From positions 6,635 to 70,634 of the forward strand of contig JBHPDK010000002.1 of assembly GCA_042577965.1 (NCBI GenBank): 64,000 bases of DNA. Direction: 5' to 3'. The notes beneath the pieces are model-generated. The model ran no database searches. It saw only the letters and a program-made list of their open reading frames with translations, and was not told the DNA's origin. The DNA is from Patescibacteria group bacterium. GTDB taxonomy: Bacteria > Patescibacteriota > Gracilibacteria > UBA1369 > PNNO01. Below are positions 13,702 through 59,204 of this stretch, in pieces (the stretch's first letter is position 1; each line of letters begins with the position of its first letter). A program made the position numbers and the translations under genes.

Positions 13702-16700
13702 ATGCTTAAAAATATAACAGCCCACATTCTTGCTTTCATCATAGCTTTTACGAGCTTTGTTCCGGCTGCCATGGCAGCTTATTTTTATGTAGATGATAAT
13801 CCAAATTTACGAAAAGGATGCCCAGGGCAAATCAATGTTATGCTTAATACAGAAGGCTCAAATGTGCTTGCAGCAGATTCAACAATGAACTTTAGTACAG
13901 CTGAAATGAGTGTGGTAAATATGGCCCTGAATGTGGCGCTTCCAATGCAGACTTATAATCAGATCACAGGCACTTTACTTGAACTTAGTGGGGCAAGGCT
14001 TCCTGCAACCGGTGCATTTAATGGCAATGGTATTTATGGAATTCTGGATATTATTCCGGATATAGCAGCAGCCAGTGTGACTTTGAATTTTTCACCTGAC
14101 CTTAATGTTGATAATGTAATTGCCGAAGAAATCACTTTTGCAAATATAATCAATATACCGGATGGCGCACAAGACGGAACTATTGCAGTAAAAGACAGAT
14201 ACAATAAAGAAGTTGATGGCGTAGGGTTCTGTACACCGGATTTGAATCCTCCTACTGTTAACTTCATTCTTCCTCCAAATGGTTCAGGCGGCAACCCGGC
14301 TAATCAGCCAAATGAAATCTTTTCAATTCAGGATGACCGTGCAGGTGTAGATATTTCAACTTTATCGTACACAATTGAGGGAGTTAGCTATACAAACACT
14401 TCTGCTCAAACAGATTTATCAGAGTCAGGTGGTGTTCATAGAGTTGAAACAACATTTACTTCAGATTGGAGCCCAGGTCAAAAAGTAGACATCAGTGTTT
14501 ACGTATGTGACTTAAATACAGACCCGGCTCCTAATTGCAATACAACAACCGGCCACTTTAATATTTATTCTCCTCCTCCTCCTTCACCGGTTTGCGGTGA
14601 CGGAATAGTTACTTACACAAACGGCGAACAATGTGACGACGGCAATACTGACAACGACGACGGATGCAGTGCTCATTGTTTTATTGAAATAGAGCCTGTG
14701 GTTTGCCCTGATATTCCAACAGATGTACCTTGCCCTACAGCAGGCTTAACAATTGTTAAAGACTTAAGTGCAGCGCTTCCTCCAGGCCAACTCCCTGTTG
14801 TAACAGGTGTTGGTGCAGCAACTGAAGAAGAGATTCTTGCAGGCGAATATCCTGCAGTTGGAACTGCAATCAAAAAAGGCATCCCAGGATGTACACGTGA
14901 AGATATCACAAAAGATGTACTTGCTGAATTTAACGTTGAAGACAGATACAGTGCAAAAGATATAAGATGTTTAGAGGATGTTGAACACTGTATGCTTCCT
15001 TTCTTAATGCACAGCGCTTACCCGGATGCAAATCCTGCTGGCAACAGATATTACCCTGATGTTTACCTAAGTGGCGAGCGAAGCGAGCCACTTCTTGAAG
15101 ACGATTCAGGGCCAATTTCAGGACAATCAAAAGATGCAATCCACTTTAGTACCCGTGAAGGTATGCTTCATGGATTCTATTTAGACTATATGAACTTAAG
15201 CCCTTTCAGACCACAATGGAACATGACAAGAATACAGATTATTAAAACTCTAAACTGGGCTGTCTTTGGCCAGTTATGGGAATATGAAGAAGAATACTAC
15301 GCAGAAATCGGAGGCGAACAAAACTTAGGCCAGGTACGAAGGCTCGCTGCTGACTTAACACAATGGTGGTATCCAAGATACTACAACTTTGCATGCGACA
15401 AAGGCGTATTTAATTGCGACCCTATGATGAACTTTGGTCCTGATGAAATTTGTTCACCTGAATGGAAGCGTGAAATCTTTGCAAGATACAAAGTATATTT
15501 TGAAGGCCAAAAACAAGAAGTCGCAGATATGAATGAAGACTCAGACGCCGACGGCCTTGTTGATTATGATGAATCAAGAGTCTTCTTAACAAATCCTGAA
15601 AACAAAGATACAGACGCAGACGCCCTCGGTGACGGCGATGAAATAGTAAAATACAAATCAAATCCAAAACTTACAGATACAGACTTTGATGGCCTTGATG
15701 ACGGCGACGAAGTAAACAAATACAAAACAAATCCTGTGCTGCCAGACACTGACGGCGATACATATCCTGATGGAATCGAAATTCGCGAAGGAACAGATCC
15801 TTTAGATCCAAACAGTTCCCCTGTAGATGAAGATGGCGATGGCATTCCTGATAAATGGGAATTACAATATGGAATCAATCCTCAAAACGGTGTAGAAGAC
15901 TTTGATGGCGATGGCCTTTCTGATTTTTTCGAACACAGGTATAGCACAGATCCAACAAATCCGGACACGGATGGCGACGGACTTTCTGACGCTGACGAAG
16001 TGCTTCTATACGGAACAGATCCTAATGAATACACAAACCTTTCAGAACTCGGAGTGCGAATTACAAATATAATGGACCAAATGACTCTTACTGATCCACG
16101 TCCTTTACTTCAGGGCTTCGCTCCTTTAGAAGGAATGGAAGTTGAAATTATTTTACGAAACGAATTCGGCAACGAAGTACTACTCGGAAGCGCTATAACA
16201 GATGTTAATAACGCATGGGTATTCACCCCTGAATTTGACATCCTGGACGGCGAATTCTATTTGTTAGCCAAAGGTCTCGATACCAAAAACAAACGAATTT
16301 TAGAATCTCCACTCATCGGAGTAATAATGAATTCAAAGCTTCAGGTAAGCGAGCCACAGCCAGAACGACTCGGCGACACAAACATCACAGAAGAAGTACT
16401 TCTTGAAGGCTTGAGTATTGAAACCCGCGATTCTGCTCCAATTTTAATCGGACGAACAGGCTTTAAAAACAAAGTAATTGCAACATGGCAGTCAGTACTC
16501 GGTACTTCTGCAATCGTAGCTGACCTTGCTGGCGGCGAATTCAGAATCCAGGCTCCAAAAGAGCTCGCACCCGGTCCCCACAAAGTTTCAGTTTACTCAA
16601 TCCGCGACAAAGACAACGCAATGAGTAAAGTTGTTACTGTTAACTTCGAAGTCAAAGAACCATTTGCTGCAATCCTTCGCGGCGTAGCAATGGGCAAAGA

Positions 16701-16824
16701 ACTTATTTTCCCTCTATGGGTATGGACTATGATCTTCCTGGGCGCAGGCCTATTACTTGGCGGCGGCATGTGGATCGAACACCACAGAAAAAAGAAAAAA
16801 GACGGCAAAACTGAGAAGAAATAG
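13702..16824 (+). CDS. Membrane-anchored surface scaffold: cohesin-like domain, Ig-like domain, DUF4215 repeat, SLH-like domain, TSP3-type Ca-binding repeats, Big/Ig domains, TM
   Basis: N-terminal INVMLNT..AAD..MNF..NGNGIYGIL cohesin pattern; YPDV..DAI..EGMLHGF..FRPQWNMTR SLH pattern; about 8 DTDGDGLxDxxE repeats; C-terminal TM and basic tail. Confidence 0.75.
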   Translation: MLKNITAHILAFIIAFTSFVPAAMAAYFYVDDNPNLRKGCPGQINVMLNTEGSNVLAADSTMNFSTAEMSVVNMALNVALPMQTYNQITGTLLELSGARLPATGAFNGNGIYGILDIIPDIAAASVTLNFSPDLNVDNVIAEEITFANIINIPDGAQDGTIAVKDRYNKEVDGVGFCTPDLNPPTVNFILPPNGSGGNPANQPNEIFSIQDDRAGVDISTLSYTIEGVSYTNTSAQTDLSESGGVHRVETTFTSDWSPGQKVDISVYVCDLNTDPAPNCNTTTGHFNIYSPPPPSPVCGDGIVTYTNGEQCDDGNTDNDDGCSAHCFIEIEPVVCPDIPTDVPCPTAGLTIVKDLSAALPPGQLPVVTGVGAATEEEILAGEYPAVGTAIKKGIPGCTREDITKDVLAEFNVEDRYSAKDIRCLEDVEHCMLPFLMHSAYPDANPAGNRYYPDVYLSGERSEPLLEDDSGPISGQSKDAIHFSTREGMLHGFYLDYMNLSPFRPQWNMTRIQIIKTLNWAVFGQLWEYEEEYYAEIGGEQNLGQVRRLAADLTQWWYPRYYNFACDKGVFNCDPMMNFGPDEICSPEWKREIFARYKVYFEGQKQEVADMNEDSDADGLVDYDESRVFLTNPENKDTDADALGDGDEIVKYKSNPKLTDTDFDGLDDGDEVNKYKTNPVLPDTDGDTYPDGIEIREGTDPLDPNSSPVDEDGDGIPDKWELQYGINPQNGVEDFDGDGLSDFFEHRYSTDPTNPDTDGDGLSDADEVLLYGTDPNEYTNLSELGVRITNIMDQMTLTDPRPLLQGFAPLEGMEVEIILRNEFGNEVLLGSAITDVNNAWVFTPEFDILDGEFYLLAKGLDTKNKRILESPLIGVIMNSKLQVSEPQPERLGDTNITEEVLLEGLSIETRDSAPILIGRTGFKNKVIATWQSVLGTSAIVADLAGGEFRIQAPKELAPGPHKVSVYSIRDKDNAMSKVVTVNFEVKEPFAAILRGVAMGKELIFPLWVWTMIFLGAGLLLGGGMWIEHHRKKKKDGKTEKK

Positions 16825-16892: not shown

Positions 16893-17000
16893 AGGGGCGC
16901 TTGATGTAAAAGGTGCGCTATCAAAAATGCTGTCTTTTTGCTGTATATTTTTATAGTGCTCTCCTCCGTCCCAGCCTCTTTGTGCTATAATGCCTTCGCT

Positions 17001-17633
17001 ATGCAATCACTCGAAGGAATCATATATATAGTTGTTGGCCTTGTAATCGCAATTTCAATTCATGAAGCTGCTCATGCTTTTGCTGCGTATCGTCTTGGTG
17101 ATCCAACTGCAAAACAAAAGGGTCGCTTAACTTTAAATCCACTTAAGCATCTCGACCTTATGGGTACTGTTATGCTTTTTTTAGCTGGATTTGGCTGGGG
17201 AAAGCCGGTTCCGGTAAATCCATATAATTTTAAAAACCCTGTGCGCGATTCAGCTGTAGTTTCGCTTGCCGGGCCTGCATCGAATTTTGCAACAGCGCTT
17301 TTACTTAGCCTGCCTTTAAAATATTTCGGCGCTGCAATGCCTTTTTGGATTGAAAACATACTCTGGGTAACCTTTGATATTAGCCTTATTCTAGGCATTT
17401 TTAACCTATTACCCTTCCCTCCTCTGGATGGCTCAAAAATCTTCGCAGTTTTTATTCCAAAGCAACATCAGGCTAAATACTTTGAGTTTTTAAAACGAAC
17501 CGAAATTATATTTTTGATATTTATTTTCGCTGATATATTCTTTATAAGACGCTGGCTCGGATACTCAATTCTGTGGCTCGTACTGGGCAGCGTATTTGAC
17601 TTTATTAAGACTTTGATCTTTTTGGGAGGCTAG
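17001..17633 (+). CDS. Site-2 protease, peptidase M50 family
   Basis: HEAAH, GDPTA, LNPLKHLD, AGP, NLLPFPPLDG. ATG 17001 lies just after TGCTATAAT. Confidence 0.92.
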   Translation: MQSLEGIIYIVVGLVIAISIHEAAHAFAAYRLGDPTAKQKGRLTLNPLKHLDLMGTVMLFLAGFGWGKPVPVNPYNFKNPVRDSAVVSLAGPASNFATALLLSLPLKYFGAAMPFWIENILWVTFDISLILGIFNLLPFPPLDGSKIFAVFIPKQHQAKYFEFLKRTEIIFLIFIFADIFFIRRWLGYSILWLVLGSVFDFIKTLIFLGG

Positions 17634-17661
17634 AAGTTGACAATTTTGTCTACCCTTTTTA

Positions 17662-17709
17662 TCACAACATGTTGTGTTTTTTGGCTTACACAAGCACAAT
17701 ATGTTGTGT
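17662..17709. promoter_or_regulatory. Tandem NrdR boxes
   Basis: TCACAACATGTTGTGT (17662) and GCACAATATGTTGTGT (17694) match acaCwAtATaTwGtgt and are 32 bp apart. Confidence 0.7.
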
Positions 17710-17758
17710 TTTTGCATAGTTGGGGGTTGCGCTCAAAAAGGCTATCATTTAAAATAAA

Positions 17759-18022
17759 AATACTCTGAATTGTTCGTTAGAACAGTTACATGCAAACCCA
17801 ACAGCATTTAAGGGGGAGTCAATATTTTTACTGACCGTGGTCTCTATTTGAGACACCCCACCTACAACATTAGGTTTGTGCATGTCATTTGATTCGACGG
17901 CAACTTCGGAGTTTTTTAATGGTTGGCAAATTCGCAACAACCCACTTTTGTGCAACAATGACGCCTCGTCGCACGAACCCACTTCGTGCAACGAACCCAC
18001 TTCGTCGTAACCAACAAGTATT
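17759..18022 (+). ncRNA. Candidate structured ncRNA of unknown family
   Basis: Convergent intergenic region with promoter TTGCGC-17-TAAAAT (17727-17755), nested helices and repeated CCCAC-loop hairpins. Confidence 0.5.
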
Positions 18023-18100
18023 CAAAAAAACGCAAAATCCCGCACTAGTAAGCCTCTAAACTGTGCGCTTTTTGTCTCGCCACCGCACCACCGCACCGCT

Positions 18101-18685
18101 TTACTGCACAATCACGTTTGCAGGAACCTCAAATCTTTCAGGAGGAATGTCCACGTTTGTTTGAATTGAAACTGCCACAGTTTTATTGGTTAGACCTAGC
18201 ATTGTAATTTCCTTTTCAATCACAATTCCGTTCCATATGCAGGCAACTCCTATATTTGGAATGTTGTAAACATCGCATTGCTGACCAGCCACAACCTTTT
18301 TTGTTATAGCTTCCGGATCTGTAGCTGCGTCTTTAATTCCAAGGGCTTTTTTAACAATCGCCAGCTCCTGATCTTCCGCTGACATCGCTTTTAGACTTTC
18401 GTAGAAAGTTGTTGGAAGTTCAACCGCAGTTGCTTTATCCATATCAACTGAATAAATTTTATCACCCAGGTTTATCTCAAGAATGTTTCCGGCTTGTGTA
18501 GTTTTGTATGTTGCCTGTTGGTCTCCTCTCAAATATACAGTCATATCCCCTTCTTCCTGCCCTGTTAATTCATATTGAATAACTGCTGTATTAAAATCAT
18601 AAACAGCAATTTCTGTTGGATAATCCGCTGGAAGGCAGCCAGTAAAAAAAATCAAAGCAATAATTAAAGTAATGAATTTTTTCAT
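18101..18685 (-). CDS. Lipoprotein of unknown function
   Basis: Lipobox FTGC; VAGQQCDVY..ACIWNG..FEVP resembles the DUF4412 type. Confidence 0.7.
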   Translation of the reverse strand: MKKFITLIIALIFFTGCLPADYPTEIAVYDFNTAVIQYELTGQEEGDMTVYLRGDQQATYKTTQAGNILEINLGDKIYSVDMDKATAVELPTTFYESLKAMSAEDQELAIVKKALGIKDAATDPEAITKKVVAGQQCDVYNIPNIGVACIWNGIVIEKEITMLGLTNKTVAVSIQTNVDIPPERFEVPANVIVQ

Positions 18686-20653: not shown

Positions 20654-21760
20654 ATGAAAGTCTTTTGTGATCAAAAGGATTTGTCTTATGCGTTAAATAC
20701 AGTTAATAAGGCGATCAGTCCAAACAATACACTTCCTGTATTGAATAATATTCTACTTAAAGCTGAAAATAAAAAATTATACCTTTCAGCAACAAACCTC
20801 GAGCTCGCTATTAGTTTATTTATTGATGCGGATGTTAGGAACGAAGGGTCAATCACAGTCCCGGCAAGACTCCTTACAAACCACGTATCACTATTACAAG
20901 ATGGGCAGCTTGAAATGACAATATCAGACGGATTAGCTTTGGCTATTAAGTCAAAAGGGTCAGAAACTAAAATGAAAGGTATTAACGCAGATGAATTTCC
21001 ACTTATTCCTAAAATTGAAAATCCAAAAGTTGTTAAGATTTCAGCAAAAGATCTCAACAAAGCAATTACAAGAACCGTGTTCGCAGCCAGCCAAAACCCG
21101 GCAAAACCCGTTTTATCAGGCGTAAACTTTATTGTTGATAAAGATATTATGAAGGTAGTTGCAACAGACAGCTATAGGTTGGCAGAGCAAAAAATTAACT
21201 TAAAAGACAAAGTTGATTTTAGTGTTCAGTCGATTATTCCAGCGCGAACAGTACAGGAATTAGGAAAGGTTGTTGGAAGAGAAGATGATAAAGATGTAGA
21301 AATGGAATTTTCAGACAGCCAGATTTTGTTCAAGATTGGGAATACAGAAATCACATCAAGATTAATCGAGGGCGCATTCCCTGCTTATGAAAAAATCTTC
21401 CCAAAAACAAGCAAGACTAAAATTGAAGTTGGAATCGAAGAGTTTATTCAGACAGTTAAAAGGGTTTCGCTTTTTGCGAGGGAAAATAACAACAACATTA
21501 AGCTTGCAGCAACAAACGACGGCAAATTAACAATTTCAACAGATGAAACAAAGGTGGGTGAAGAAAAAGCAGAAGTAGATGTTGAAGTAAGCGGCGAAAA
21601 CAACAAGATTGCGCTTAATGCTCAGTATTTAGGGGATGTTCTATCTTATCTGGATATAGACAGGGCGCGGGTTGAGTTAAACGACAAACTTTCACCTGCT
21701 GCAATTAAGCCTTGCAAAGATGATGACTATGTCTATATAATCATGCCACTAAAAGTATAA
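20654..21760 (+). CDS. dnaN: DNA polymerase III beta clamp
   Basis: ATNLE, VATDSYRL, SRLIEGAFP, YIIMPL. Confidence 0.98.
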   Translation: MKVFCDQKDLSYALNTVNKAISPNNTLPVLNNILLKAENKKLYLSATNLELAISLFIDADVRNEGSITVPARLLTNHVSLLQDGQLEMTISDGLALAIKSKGSETKMKGINADEFPLIPKIENPKVVKISAKDLNKAITRTVFAASQNPAKPVLSGVNFIVDKDIMKVVATDSYRLAEQKINLKDKVDFSVQSIIPARTVQELGKVVGREDDKDVEMEFSDSQILFKIGNTEITSRLIEGAFPAYEKIFPKTSKTKIEVGIEEFIQTVKRVSLFARENNNNIKLAATNDGKLTISTDETKVGEEKAEVDVEVSGENNKIALNAQYLGDVLSYLDIDRARVELNDKLSPAAIKPCKDDDYVYIIMPLKV

Positions 21761-21790
21761 ATTCAACCTCTTTTAAAAATATAAACCTAG

Positions 21791-24700
21791 TTGGTTCCGA
21801 AAGAAATTAAAATCAGTGATCTTTTTGATACTGCCCAGAATATTCGCGTTTTGGATCTTTTTCATAAACACAAAAATATCAGCCTAAGTGGGGCTGGGAA
21901 CGCTGCATCAAAGGCATTTGTGGTATTTGAGCTTCTTAAAAAATACAAAGAATATAAGAAGATTTTATGGATTGTTAATGACCCAATGGAACAGGAAAAT
22001 TTAATTAAATCATTACACGTTTGGAGCAACATCCAAACATATAGTTATTTATTAAAAGAGGAAATTTCTCAGGAAAATTTAATTGAAACCCTGAGCACAA
22101 TTGCGCATCTACAGGATGCTGCAAAAAAAATAATAATTGCACCTTATCAGACAATCCTTGAAGACGTTACGTCAAAACAAGAGCTTGATGAATCAAAATT
22201 TATGATCGAGGAGGGCCAAAATATAACAAATATTGAATTAATTGAAGCACTGGTTGAGCTTGGATACGAAGTTGCACCAGGTGATTTTTTAGAAAAAGGA
22301 ATGTACTACCAGAAAGGTGAAATCATAACGGTTTACCCTGTAAATACCGATCACCCAATTAGGTTCGAGCTTGCATTTGATAAAATCGAAGCACTTGATT
22401 TATATGAACAGGAAAACGGTAAAAAAACCGTTAAAAAGCTAAAAAAAGCTGAAATTTATCCTTTAAAAATAAAAACCGACACAGGTGTTTTAACAGAATA
22501 TCTCGACAAACACACGCTGCTGATCGAGGACGAAATCGATGTTATAGATGATTATTTTGAGGCCTGGAACGCTTTAATGGACGAAGCCTACGAAAAAAGC
22601 GCCTCTTTAACTTTTACAACTTTCAACGAAGACGTCTCTCAACACGAGCACCTTCATTATTTATCAGTGTTAAGTTATCGTGGCTCATACGACTTTATAA
22701 GCGACCTTAGGGACAAACAAAGAAACAACTGGAATGTTGTAATTTACACTAAAAAAATAGATGAGCTTAAAGAGATGCTGGGCGAAAGTAATGTTCCTTA
22801 TACGGAAGATTTAAAACAACTGGCAGATCCTCAAAAAAGTCCAAACTTTTTATTTTTAGTTAATTTGGATGTTGAGGCGGTATTCCCAAAATCATTCCAA
22901 AATCCAGAAATAAAACTACTGTTTTTAAGTGATAAAGATATTTTGTCGCTAAAAGAAGAAGCCAAAAAGTCATTTAATCAAAAAGTGTACTTAGACTTCT
23001 TAACCGGCTTAAAGCCTAACGATTTCGTTGTTCATGCAGATCACGGAATCGCAAGATTTTATGGCCTTGAAAAAAAAACCGTAGATGAAATTACGCGTGA
23101 ATATTTAAAACTCGGGTACGCAGAAAACGACAAACTTTTTGTACCGATTGATCAGGCCGACAAAGTCAACAAATATATCGGAGCTGAAGAAAACGCGCCA
23201 AAACTTACACGCCTTGGTTCGGCTGAGTGGGCAACCGTGACTAGTCGTGTTAGAAAAGAAACTGAAATAATCGCAAAAGAACTTTTGGTTTTATATGCAA
23301 AACGAAAAACTGCAAAAGGATTCAAATTTAAGTTGGACAATGATCTTCAGGCAAAATTTGAAGCAACCTTCCCATACGAAGAAACACCTGGTCAGTTTAA
23401 ATCTATTAATGATGTTAAAGAAGATATGGAAAGAGAAATTCCAATGGACCGTCTTGTTTGCGGGGATGTTGGATTTGGAAAAACCGAGGTAGCTATGCGC
23501 GCGGCATTTAAGGCTGTACAAAGCGGGAAGCAGGTTGCGCTGGTTTCGCCAATTACAATTTTAACAGACCAACATTACCGTTCGTTCACTAAAAGAATGA
23601 ATCAGTTTGATGTGCGAATCGAAATGCTTTCGCGCTTTAGAACTCCAAAACAACAGCGCGAAATTTTAGGACGCCTTGAAAAAGGAGAAGTAGATATTGT
23701 TATTGGAACACACAGATTATTACAACCGGATATTAAATTTAAAGACCTTGGACTCATTATCGTGGATGAAGAGCAAAGATTTGGGGTTAAGCAAAAAGAG
23801 AAATTAAAAGAAATAAAAAGCGAAGTGGATGTTGTGACTTTAACAGCAACACCAATTCCACGAACCCTAAATATCTGCTTAAACAAACTACGCGATATAA
23901 CCACTATTACAACACCTCCCCCGGGCCGTTTACCTGTAATTACAGAGGTGCGACGTTTTAGTAATGGTCTTATCCGGGATGCAATTCTGCGCGAAGTAAA
24001 ACGCAACGGCCAAATTTACTTTTTACACAACCGTGTTCAGACAATTGATGGTATGGCAGATAAATTACGTAAACTTGTACCAGAGGCAACGTTTGGGGTC
24101 GCACACGGCAAGCTCGGAACAGGAGACCTTGAAGAAACAATCGTTGCATTTAAAGAGCACAAATTTGACGTGCTCGTAAGCTCAACAATTATTGAAAATG
24201 GAATCGATCTGGCAAACGCTAATACTTTAATTGTTAATAATGCAGAAAAATTCGGGCTGGCACAGCTTTACCAGTTACGTGGACGTGTTGGCCGTGGAAA
24301 AACACAGGCTTACGCATACTTTTTGTATCACGGGCAAAGGCTTAAATTAGACGCGAAAAAGCGTTTACGTGCAATTGTTGAAGCCAGCGACCTGGGTAGC
24401 GGATTCCAGATTGCCATGAAAGACCTTGAGATTCGCGGAGCCGGCGATATTTTAGGAGCCAATCAACACGGAGTGATAAATGTTGTGGGTGTTTCGCATT
24501 TTATCCGCATGTTAAATAAGGCAGTTGAAGACCTTAAAGCAGGTCGCCTTGAAGCTGGCAAAGAAGGCGAAGAAGCATTTGAAGTTGCAATTGAGCTTCC
24601 GGTTTCAGCGTTTATTCCTGACGATTACATTGTTAATGCAAAAGATAAAATTAATGCGTATCAAAAGATTTCAGGTGCGGATGGTCTGGAATATTTAAAT

Positions 24701-25033
24701 GATTTAAATAAAGAGATGGTACAGGAGTATGGGAAAATGCCGCGCGAAGTTCAGAATTTATTCAGAGTCCTTGTGTTAAAAATCGAATCTAAAAAAGCAG
24801 GCTTAACAAATGTAAAAGCTGAAAATGTGCACATGGATCGTGGCAAGCAAATTGTTTTATCAATGTCTAAAAAGGTAAGACCAGAGAACATAATGAACCT
24901 CCTGGAATATAATCCAAAGTGGATAATAAGCGGAACAAAGCTAAAAATTAATATTGAGGACCTGGGGCTCCACTGGTTTGATGCATTAAAAGACAACGTT
25001 AAAAAACTGCAAAAAGCTTTAAAAACAAAATAA
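21791..25033 (+). CDS. mfd: Transcription-repair coupling factor
   Basis: CarD-like domain, CGDVGFGKT, DEEQRFG, QLRGRVGR, TRCF C-terminus. Confidence 0.98.
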   Translation: MVPKEIKISDLFDTAQNIRVLDLFHKHKNISLSGAGNAASKAFVVFELLKKYKEYKKILWIVNDPMEQENLIKSLHVWSNIQTYSYLLKEEISQENLIETLSTIAHLQDAAKKIIIAPYQTILEDVTSKQELDESKFMIEEGQNITNIELIEALVELGYEVAPGDFLEKGMYYQKGEIITVYPVNTDHPIRFELAFDKIEALDLYEQENGKKTVKKLKKAEIYPLKIKTDTGVLTEYLDKHTLLIEDEIDVIDDYFEAWNALMDEAYEKSASLTFTTFNEDVSQHEHLHYLSVLSYRGSYDFISDLRDKQRNNWNVVIYTKKIDELKEMLGESNVPYTEDLKQLADPQKSPNFLFLVNLDVEAVFPKSFQNPEIKLLFLSDKDILSLKEEAKKSFNQKVYLDFLTGLKPNDFVVHADHGIARFYGLEKKTVDEITREYLKLGYAENDKLFVPIDQADKVNKYIGAEENAPKLTRLGSAEWATVTSRVRKETEIIAKELLVLYAKRKTAKGFKFKLDNDLQAKFEATFPYEETPGQFKSINDVKEDMEREIPMDRLVCGDVGFGKTEVAMRAAFKAVQSGKQVALVSPITILTDQHYRSFTKRMNQFDVRIEMLSRFRTPKQQREILGRLEKGEVDIVIGTHRLLQPDIKFKDLGLIIVDEEQRFGVKQKEKLKEIKSEVDVVTLTATPIPRTLNICLNKLRDITTITTPPPGRLPVITEVRRFSNGLIRDAILREVKRNGQIYFLHNRVQTIDGMADKLRKLVPEATFGVAHGKLGTGDLEETIVAFKEHKFDVLVSSTIIENGIDLANANTLIVNNAEKFGLAQLYQLRGRVGRGKTQAYAYFLYHGQRLKLDAKKRLRAIVEASDLGSGFQIAMKDLEIRGAGDILGANQHGVINVVGVSHFIRMLNKAVEDLKAGRLEAGKEGEEAFEVAIELPVSAFIPDDYIVNAKDKINAYQKISGADGLEYLNDLNKEMVQEYGKMPREVQNLFRVLVLKIESKKAGLTNVKAENVHMDRGKQIVLSMSKKVRPENIMNLLEYNPKWIISGTKLKINIEDLGLHWFDALKDNVKKLQKALKTK

Positions 25034-25595: not shown

Positions 25596-26013
25596 GGGGA
25601 TGTACTGGCATTCGACAGAGGTATTTTTAATTTGCTGGTTGCAATCAGGGGATCGCGCTGTCTCCCCTTATATCCGTCCAGCGCATTTATAATTGCTGAC
25701 GAAGCTTATAATAAAGCTGCTTTCGCAAAACTCTTCAAAGCTCCGGCTTTAAGAGTTCCTGCAATGGCAGTTGCCTAAGTGCCTAAGTGTACTTACGTCC
25801 TTATAATTGATGTCTAATATTTTATAAGGGCGCAAATTATTAGACTGTATCTCTTTTTATGATTTGGATTGAGATCGAGGAATCTACAAATCATCCGCCT
25901 TCTCGGCTTTTTGTTCGTTCTTTATCGTTGAGGCGTAACTAAAACGAACTAAGATTGTAGACACTAACATTTTAGGCCTTTGCACCCGGGTTCGACTCCC
26001 GGCATCTCCACCA
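25596..26013 (+). ncRNA. ssrA: tmRNA; tag reading frame 25695-25778, (A)ADEAYNKAAFAKLFKAPALRVPAMAVA
   Basis: 5' GGGGATG..TTCGAC; 3' CCGGGTTCGACTCCCGGCATCTCCACCA; ATAATT precedes the resume codon. Confidence 0.95.
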
Positions 26014-59111: not shown

Positions 59112-59204
59112 TGGCGGAGAGGGGGGGATTCGAACCCCCGCGGCCACATAAGTAACCCTACAGGATTAGCAATCCCGCCTCTTCAGCCACTTGAGTACCT
59201 CTCC
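59112..59204 (-). tRNA. tRNA-Ser(GCT)
   Basis: GGAGAGG acceptor stem, CGGGA-TTGCTAA-TCCTG anticodon arm, long variable arm, TTCGAAT, encoded CCA. Confidence 0.97.

Follow-up and report, generated by a model that had tools for sequence, protein, structure and literature searches.

What do two binding sites for the regulator NrdR control where no ribonucleotide reductase (RNR) gene follows them? The question arises in a 467-bp gap (17634–18100) between a gene for an M50-family peptidase and a convergent gene for a protein of 194 aa, within a 64,000-nt stretch of Patescibacteria group bacterium DNA (contig JBHPDK010000002.1, positions 6,635 to 70,634; this whole stretch is referred to as the window). 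A reading made from the letters alone (hereafter the sequence-only reading) had proposed that two NrdR boxes stand there in front of a structured non-coding RNA rather than an nrd gene. The strings that it quoted, namely TTGACA (17637–17642), the two boxes, TTGCGC-17-TAAAAT and the helix arms, are all found where it had placed them, and its central proposal has held, as the sequence features of a two-box NrdR site are present and the next element on the strand is an RNA of Rfam family RF00013, the 6S RNA. Judged from sequence comparison, we consider it probable that the boxes form a canonical two-box NrdR operator upstream of the 6S RNA gene, through which NrdR would change 6S synthesis, most likely by repressing it.

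6S RNA is an abundant, stable transcript that resembles an open promoter, ties up the housekeeping RNA polymerase holoenzyme and templates product RNAs, acting as a global brake on RNA polymerase. In the gap, RF00013 was matched at 17759–17916 (+) with 58.3 bits against a gathering cut-off of 46.4, over the full model (1–187) and with an E-value of 6e-11 on 701 nt, and up to E = 1 the gap matched no other Rfam family. This answers one of the checks that the sequence-only reading had suggested; two others, covariation of the RNA and presence of nrdR in the genome, were positive as well. The minimum free energy (MFE) fold of the 158-nt RNA (−44.9 kcal/mol, z −3.9) was equalled by none of 200 shuffles and forms a rod composed of a closing stem, the internal stem CATGCAAACC/GGTTTGTGCATG, an asymmetric bubble at the centre, the 3′ strand of which contains a small hairpin, and an apical domain whose closing helix is GGGG/CCCC. 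Of 101 related genomes, 49 yielded 6S homologues with the covariance model (E up to 0.001), and 26 of these homologues scored above the cut-off. When the sequences from these 49 genomes were aligned with five of seven metagenome copies (54 sequences in total), compensatory changes on both sides were seen in 21 of 30 consensus pairs; 92.0% of the alignment cells were paired, compared with 40.6–53.9% when the partners were slid by 1–3 columns, the covariation score was 0.519 compared with 0.07–0.14 when slid, and none of 500 shuffles matched any of the five measures. The internal stem, which MAFFT aligned too poorly for the pair count, is visible in the Rfam alignment.

Two of the helices named by the sequence-only reading, CATGCAAACC/GGTTTGTGCATG and GGGG/CCCC, thus belong to the 6S fold, whereas its three-way junction is not part of the covarying consensus: the two-hairpin junction of GTCA/TGAC and GTCTC/GAGAC forms in the window sequence's own MFE fold, and the covarying apical domain of the 54 relatives is one extended hairpin tipped by GACCGUGGUC. 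Its outer helix AATACT/AGTATT and its GTTGG/CCAAC domain have to be given up as parts of the RNA, which ends at 17916 and not near 18022; both are placed 3′ of the RNA in 17917–18100, which is missing from relatives. A run of six T directly follows the closing stem and plausibly marks the end of 6S transcription. The RNA is, by its sequence, an ordinary member of the known 6S/SsrS family and not a new structured RNA: it has the same 158-nt length, closing stem, asymmetric bubble, apical stem and covariation as 6S RNA/SsrS (RF00013), with no structural difference.

In the excerpts of the published work on which we draw here and below, an NrdR site is defined as two partially palindromic 16-bp boxes 15–16 bp apart (PMC13584703, PMC12051234), each with six conserved positions, C4, A6, A8, T9, T11 and G13, of which C4 and G13 are crucial (PMC13584703). 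In the gap, TCACAACATGTTGTGT (box 1) and GCACAATATGTTGTGT (box 2) begin 32 bp apart and both carry C4, A6, A8, T9, T11 and G13, that is, all twelve key positions, and the stretch 17662–17709 fits the two-box definition, in which a gap of 15–16 bp is expected and 14–17 bp is tolerated. The pair is not in the promoter region of an RNR operon, the usual location; 6S RNA is the next gene on the strand. Upstream of 6S, the two boxes agree with every published sequence criterion for an NrdR-binding site. As a tandem, they exceed chance: when the whole 1.26-Mb assembly was filtered for tandem pairs with phased spacing (at most five mismatches in each box and at most eight in sum), only two pairs were retained, of which the site upstream of 6S had a mismatch total of 5 and the other of 8.

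A weight matrix that contains no 6S sites also ranks the pair high. The assembly has a single RNR large-subunit gene, which lies on another contig with boxes of its own, and no class III ribonucleotide reductase was found in this 75%-complete assembly. Pairs of boxes 31–32 bp apart, about 200–250 nt before the start codon, precede the RNR gene in 12 of 12 family genomes in which the upstream region lies on the contig; a thirteenth, G012, in which this region is cut off, was left out. From these 24 RNR-gene boxes of one family a symmetrised weight matrix was constructed, and it ranked the RNR operator, itself part of the training set, first among the tandem sites of the window's genome with 32.1 bits and the 6S site second with 28.3 bits, followed by a site upstream of dnaA (18.5 bits) and one by a PD-(D/E)XK nuclease gene (18.0 bits), with nothing else above 13 bits. 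NrdR itself is encoded in the assembly, on contig C22 (TIGR00244, 190.4 bits against a cut-off of 124.65; Zn_ribbon_NrdR and ATP-cone). It was found in 95 of 101 relatives, including G007, a genome devoid of the boxes at 6S, and with nrdR so widespread a phylogenetic profile of nrdR against box presence proved uninformative.

The pair recurs at the same place in relatives. Offsets were counted from the Rfam start of 6S and are approximate relative to the transcription start. Of the 11 genomes of family f1 with a covariance-model match to 6S, nine have the pair at −96 to −98 and −65 to −66, and each of these nine beat all 300 dinucleotide shuffles; in family f13, six of eight genomes have it about one helical turn farther from 6S (−106 to −108 and −74 to −76). 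Across the order, tandem sites beating all 300 shuffles were found upstream of 6S in 17 of 49 genomes (f1, 9/11; f13, 6/8; f15, 1/3; f3, 1/3; eight other families, 0/24), and 9 bits were reached in 15 of 49 upstream regions and in none of 49 downstream controls. Families f15 and f17 have a single moderate box at −114, and one genome among them passes the shuffle test. In G006, the twelfth family genome, 6S was recovered by BLASTN only, and box 2 (−76) is strong and box 1 (−108) weak. In the thirteenth, G002 (same genus), 6S was found neither by the covariance model nor by BLASTN. Seven metagenome contigs with a family-type 6S were obtained with a simple sequence pattern (a variable-gap pattern gave no matches); five have the pair at the same offsets, two of them being near-duplicates of two others, and the remaining two, which are G007-like, lack it.

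In an alignment of 13 family-type upstream regions, the conserved elements are only TGTCnA, box 1, box 2, the TTG of the −35 and the TAnnnT of the −10, and box 2 is the most conserved element of the region. The distance between box 1 and the upstream stop codon varies among relatives. The pair stays at its distance from 6S in genus g5, where the M50 gene is inverted, and the distance is also unchanged in G004, where a metallo-beta-lactamase-fold gene has displaced the M50 gene. The boxes belong to the 6S gene, not to its upstream neighbour.

Two promoters had been put forward in the sequence-only reading, and they fared differently. TTGCGC-17-TAAAAT is conserved, with the TTG of its −35 and the TAnnnT of its −10 invariant in 13 of 13 aligned relatives and in the same register in other families, whereas TTGACA at 17637–17642 is not conserved in relatives; what is invariant there is TGTCnA, nine bases further downstream. 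TGTCnA may be the −35 of a distal promoter (TTGTCT, 17646–17651, with the −10 in box 1) or the site of another factor. A generic promoter scan flagged neither of the two promoters of the sequence-only reading; it returned a single site, inside the M50 gene, compared with 1.8 expected, and no terminators.

In the mechanism that we propose, 6S would be transcribed from the conserved sigma-70-type promoter TTGCGC-17-TAAAAT, and an NrdR tetramer loaded with dATP and ATP would alter 6S synthesis by occupying both boxes, which are centred about 58 and 90 bp before the RNA start. NrdR with dATP and ATP has been described as a DNA-binding tetramer, and with ATP alone as non-binding oligomers (PMC9110341, PMC13584703). 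The boxes would be occupied when dATP is high relative to demand, and ATP-only NrdR would leave the DNA. Repression is the default for two-box sites and would be the most likely sign at 6S; it could be exerted by blocking the T-rich flank just upstream of the proximal −35, or by occluding the distal promoter TTGTCT-16-CATGTT, the −10 of which would fall within box 1. The output of 6S would thereby be coupled to that of the RNR gene, and probably to that of dnaA, with polymerase availability tracking the dNTP/ATP status (dNTP, deoxynucleoside triphosphate). We infer NrdR binding, the sign of regulation, the transcription starts and the physiological logic from motif, spacing and phylogenetic conservation.

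Several observations weigh against an operator that controls 6S. As for the boxes themselves, a single-box search at loose stringency (at most three mismatches) gave 6 matches where 3.76 ± 2.40 were expected, a number that 18 of 100 shuffles attained as well; the published box-pair regular expression gave 240 genome-wide matches at a core spacing of 20–24 nt, the 6S site among them, and is non-discriminating in a genome this AT-rich (35% G+C). As for the promoters, 17 bp separate the boxes from the downstream −35 of the one promoter that is clearly conserved, and overlap with the polymerase site would exist only if the distal promoter is real; the latter is a weak candidate (possible −10 elements CATGTT, TATGTT, TATATG and CCTGTA), was not flagged by the generic scan and is not recognisable in family f13. 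As for the distribution, 32 of the 49 6S genes within the order are without a tandem site, and none of 23 6S loci of other orders has one (best 1.6 bits; 34 genomes of other orders had a 6S match in the class-wide sample, and the 23 that came with loci were examined). Several genomes have a degenerate box 1, among them G010 with −0.7 bits. G005 keeps one box-like site and G007 none, the M50 stop codon of G007 abutting the promoter; because 6S and the proximal promoter persist without a good tandem site in these two of the 11 f1 genomes and in two of seven metagenome contigs, the operator is dispensable there. The genomes compared are kin and not independent samples, so that the counts overstate independence. 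Finally, as RNA of the window's genome, 17663–17708 folds into a 17-bp hairpin followed by UUUUU, a point taken up below.

The geometry of the boxes bears on how NrdR would act. NrdR might bind and activate the 6S promoter, or act from one helix face, instead of occluding a promoter. The boxes lie wholly upstream of the −35, with their centres at the usual place of upstream-bound activators, and the pair of G006 and f13 is shifted by 10–11 bp (−107/−75 compared with −97/−65), about one helical turn, which would keep it on the same face; moreover, NrdR activates topA in P. aeruginosa (PMC4409342). However, that precedent is a single box, whereas all biochemically studied two-box sites in the excerpts consulted are repressor sites (PMC13584703, PMC12051234, PMC9110341), the offsets are approximate because they are counted from the Rfam start, and f15 and f17 have their candidate sites at −114, out of phase with the others. 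Helical phasing was rejected as a general rule, since it fits f1 against G006 and f13 and fails at these weaker −114 sites. We regard activation or one-face action as unlikely, but activation as an alternative to be taken seriously. A broader proposal shares its geometry: a fixed helical face upstream of the core promoter (−65/−97 or −75/−107) would suggest a mechanism other than occlusion, for instance activation or the trapping of alpha subunits of the polymerase, and in this order NrdR, rather than being RNR-specific, might be the master of a small growth-state regulon (RNR gene, dnaA and 6S) that acts at 6S non-occlusively from upstream. On present sequence comparisons this broader proposal is conceivable but doubtful.

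The same palindromes might act mainly as RNA, forming, in a transcript that runs in from the M50 gene, a hairpin with a U-run that terminates M50 transcription and insulates the 6S promoter, with the likeness to NrdR boxes being secondary. The hairpin noted above lies in a 127-nt region that folds with −32.5 kcal/mol (z −2.7; 2 of 200 shuffles as good), T-runs follow both boxes in most family members, and on the 6S-sense strand the palindrome mismatches are of the G-U type more often than of the A-C type, both within the boxes (32 vs 10) and between them (36 vs 6), the reverse of the RNR boxes (10 vs 24). T-rich left half-sites can, however, produce such a G-U bias, the stem is AT-rich, single boxes fold no better than shuffles, and no helix between the boxes is predicted for G009, G010, G011, G012 and G091, where other pairings form (−6.6 to −14.2 kcal/mol). 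All six NrdR contact positions are retained, which a terminator would not need; the distance is fixed to the 6S promoter and variable to the upstream stop codon; and the element persists in g5, where no M50 gene lies upstream on the same strand. A primarily RNA-level function is improbable, and a hairpin in the transcript possibly has a minor, additional role.

The losses of boxes listed above also suit a reading in which the boxes are decaying or neutral (a former operator or a titration site) and have no present effect on 6S, or are recognised by another protein. G007-like genomes have lost the boxes, and G005, G010, G011 and G012 have degenerate ones, 6S being retained in all of these; most families of the order lack the boxes, as do other orders. 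Against neutrality, position and spacing are conserved in two families, in one of them across at least four genera, with flanks that have diverged, box 2 of g5 is within one mismatch of the consensus despite different flanks, and no nrd gene lies near the 6S locus in any relative. Decay or neutrality, or recognition by another protein, is a quite unlikely explanation of the pair. That the boxes are a relic of a deleted nrd operon was rejected, since the same 6S occupies this place in relatives and the RNR gene, with an operator of its own, is located elsewhere, and so was a protein-coding gap, whose open reading frames (ORFs) of 56 aa (17889–18059 +), 83 aa (17749–18000 −) and 50 aa (17565–17717 −) overlap the RNA or the boxes, the 56-aa ORF falling in the stretch that relatives do not have.

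Regulation of 6S by a two-box NrdR operator, the reading that we favour, can be set beside known systems. With the RNR two-box operators of E. coli (nrdHIEF, nrdDG and nrdAB) and S. coelicolor (nrdRJ and nrdAB), the site has in common the box pair, the linker and the six positions (PMC13584703, PMC12051234); here, by contrast, a non-coding RNA lies downstream, and the boxes are upstream of a recognisable core promoter instead of over it. A pair well upstream that looks functional is also found as the promoter-distal pair of L. monocytogenes nrdAB, which is bound 5–10 times more weakly in vitro (PMC12051234), and there a proximal pair overlaps the polymerase site, whereas no proximal pair exists here. 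P. aeruginosa topA is likewise a non-RNR gene with an NrdR box, in which dNTP sensing is tied to the global state of DNA and transcription; it differs in being protein-coding, in having a single box and in that NrdR was experimentally shown to be its activator (PMC4409342). E. coli ssrS, with promoters P1 and P2 and the regulators Fis, H-NS and Lrp (PMC12152304), resembles the present gene in upstream control by proteins, a possible promoter pair and a processed longer precursor, but those regulators are nucleoid-associated proteins and not a nucleotide-sensing repressor, and the distal promoter here is a putative one.

NrdR is described by its research groups as an RNR-specific repressor in the excerpts of PMC9110341, and the large survey of NrdR motifs covered only 500 nt upstream of RNR operons (PMC13584703), so that targets of the 6S type would be missed. 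In the literature searched, NrdR never occurs together with 6S RNA or ssrS in a title or abstract, with full-text co-mentions only, and nothing related was found on 6S RNA and Patescibacteria. The 6S RNA is ordinary and the NrdR site ordinary-looking; their combination appears undescribed. 6S RNA is a global regulator, and to our knowledge little is known of its own transcriptional control outside E. coli. The lineage has very few regulators and is not culturable alone. If the operator is functional, one nucleotide sensor would couple dNTP supply, replication initiation (likely through dnaA) and RNA polymerase availability: the dATP/ATP ratio would set dNTP synthesis, replication initiation and, via 6S, the amount of free housekeeping RNA polymerase. 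This argues for scanning whole genomes, and not RNR genes alone, for NrdR box pairs. Because NrdR proteins bind foreign boxes (PMC13584703), NrdR at 6S is directly testable with existing reagents.

NrdR-type sites at other genes were also inspected. The tandem site upstream of dnaA (contig C5:3663–3710 of G000, the window's genome) lies 155–187 nt before the dnaA start codon, and a box of at least 11 bits was found upstream of dnaA in eight of the ten family genomes examined; a related palindrome, ATCCAAyATrTTGGAT, lies about 33 nt further downstream. The RNR operator is separated from the RNR start codon by a conserved leader of about 210 nt (G000 C7:33283–33520 and 11 relatives), in which an inverted repeat (GCAAC...TTGC) and the blocks ATATATTCGA and GCGCTCA occur; no Rfam match was obtained for the three loci searched, and the leader may be an unrecognised RNA element. 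In G007 (C4:58838–60428), a near-consensus NrdR box stands directly before a gene for an HD-domain (dGTPase-like) protein, which is followed by nrdR; the same gene pair in G000 has no detectable NrdR box.

Features of the gap and its flanking genes, in window coordinates
Feature	Coordinates	Strand	Remarks
Peptidase_M50 family gene	16938–17633	+	Pfam PF02163, E 3.6e-14; upstream neighbour of the 6S gene
TGTCnA element	17647–17652	+	10 nt upstream of box 1; invariant in 13/13 family-type regions, as conserved as the promoter hexamers
NrdR box 1, TCACAACATGTTGTGT	17662–17677		15.0 bits with the RNR-derived matrix
Linker, 16 bp	17678–17693		from sequence
NrdR box 2, GCACAATATGTTGTGT	17694–17709		13.3 bits with the RNR-derived matrix
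Proximal 6S promoter, TTGCGC-17-TAAAAT	17727–17755	+	−35 at 17727–17732, −10 at 17750–17755; −10 ends 4 nt before the Rfam start
6S/SsrS RNA gene, 158 nt	17759–17916	+	RF00013; closing stem followed by U-run, central bubble, apical hairpin
Genome-specific spacer, not part of 6S RNA	17917–18100		short direct repeats; terminator-like hairpin near 18040–18075
194-aa gene without a Pfam family	18101–18685	−	convergent downstream neighbour

The spacer behind the RNA had no Rfam match. In the window's genome only, a short dispersed repeat (GAACCCACTTCGT-type units) of the repeat families D1 and D2 is inserted there after the 6S gene, and copies occur elsewhere in the assembly (41 nt with 97.6% identity at C15:12932–12972, and 35 nt at C22:1372–1406). 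Among the flanking genes, the M50 gene was recovered by tblastn at 41 of 49 6S loci across the order, in three relative orientations, and the 194-aa gene at 11 of 49, all in family f1, which makes it a conserved neighbour within the family. The Pfam search gave no match for the 194-aa protein, and its nearest protein-atlas clusters are hypothetical proteins, some of them DUF4412 (score 0.94), which we take as a lead only. In E. coli, the gene downstream of 6S encodes 5-formyltetrahydrofolate cyclo-ligase, whereas the gene downstream of the 6S of the window does not.

Genomes of the order range from 0.7 to 1.9 Mb. The label of candidate phyla radiation (CPR), which the sequence-only reading had used, suits them: loss of ribosomal protein L30 is a hallmark of the CPR, and L30 was found in none of five near-complete relatives compared with 13 of 14 controls. 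Elsewhere in the window, 13702–16824 encodes a protein of 1040 aa with a bacterial TSP3 repeat, DUF4215 and, at 20.6 bits where the cut-off is 25, a weak match to the Ca-binding domain of binary toxin B/anthrax protective antigen (PA); from these domains it is probably a Ca-binding surface protein. dnaN followed by mfd occupies 20654–25033 (+), and a tmRNA (114 bits) and a tRNA lie at 25596–26013 (+) and 59115–59204 (−), respectively.

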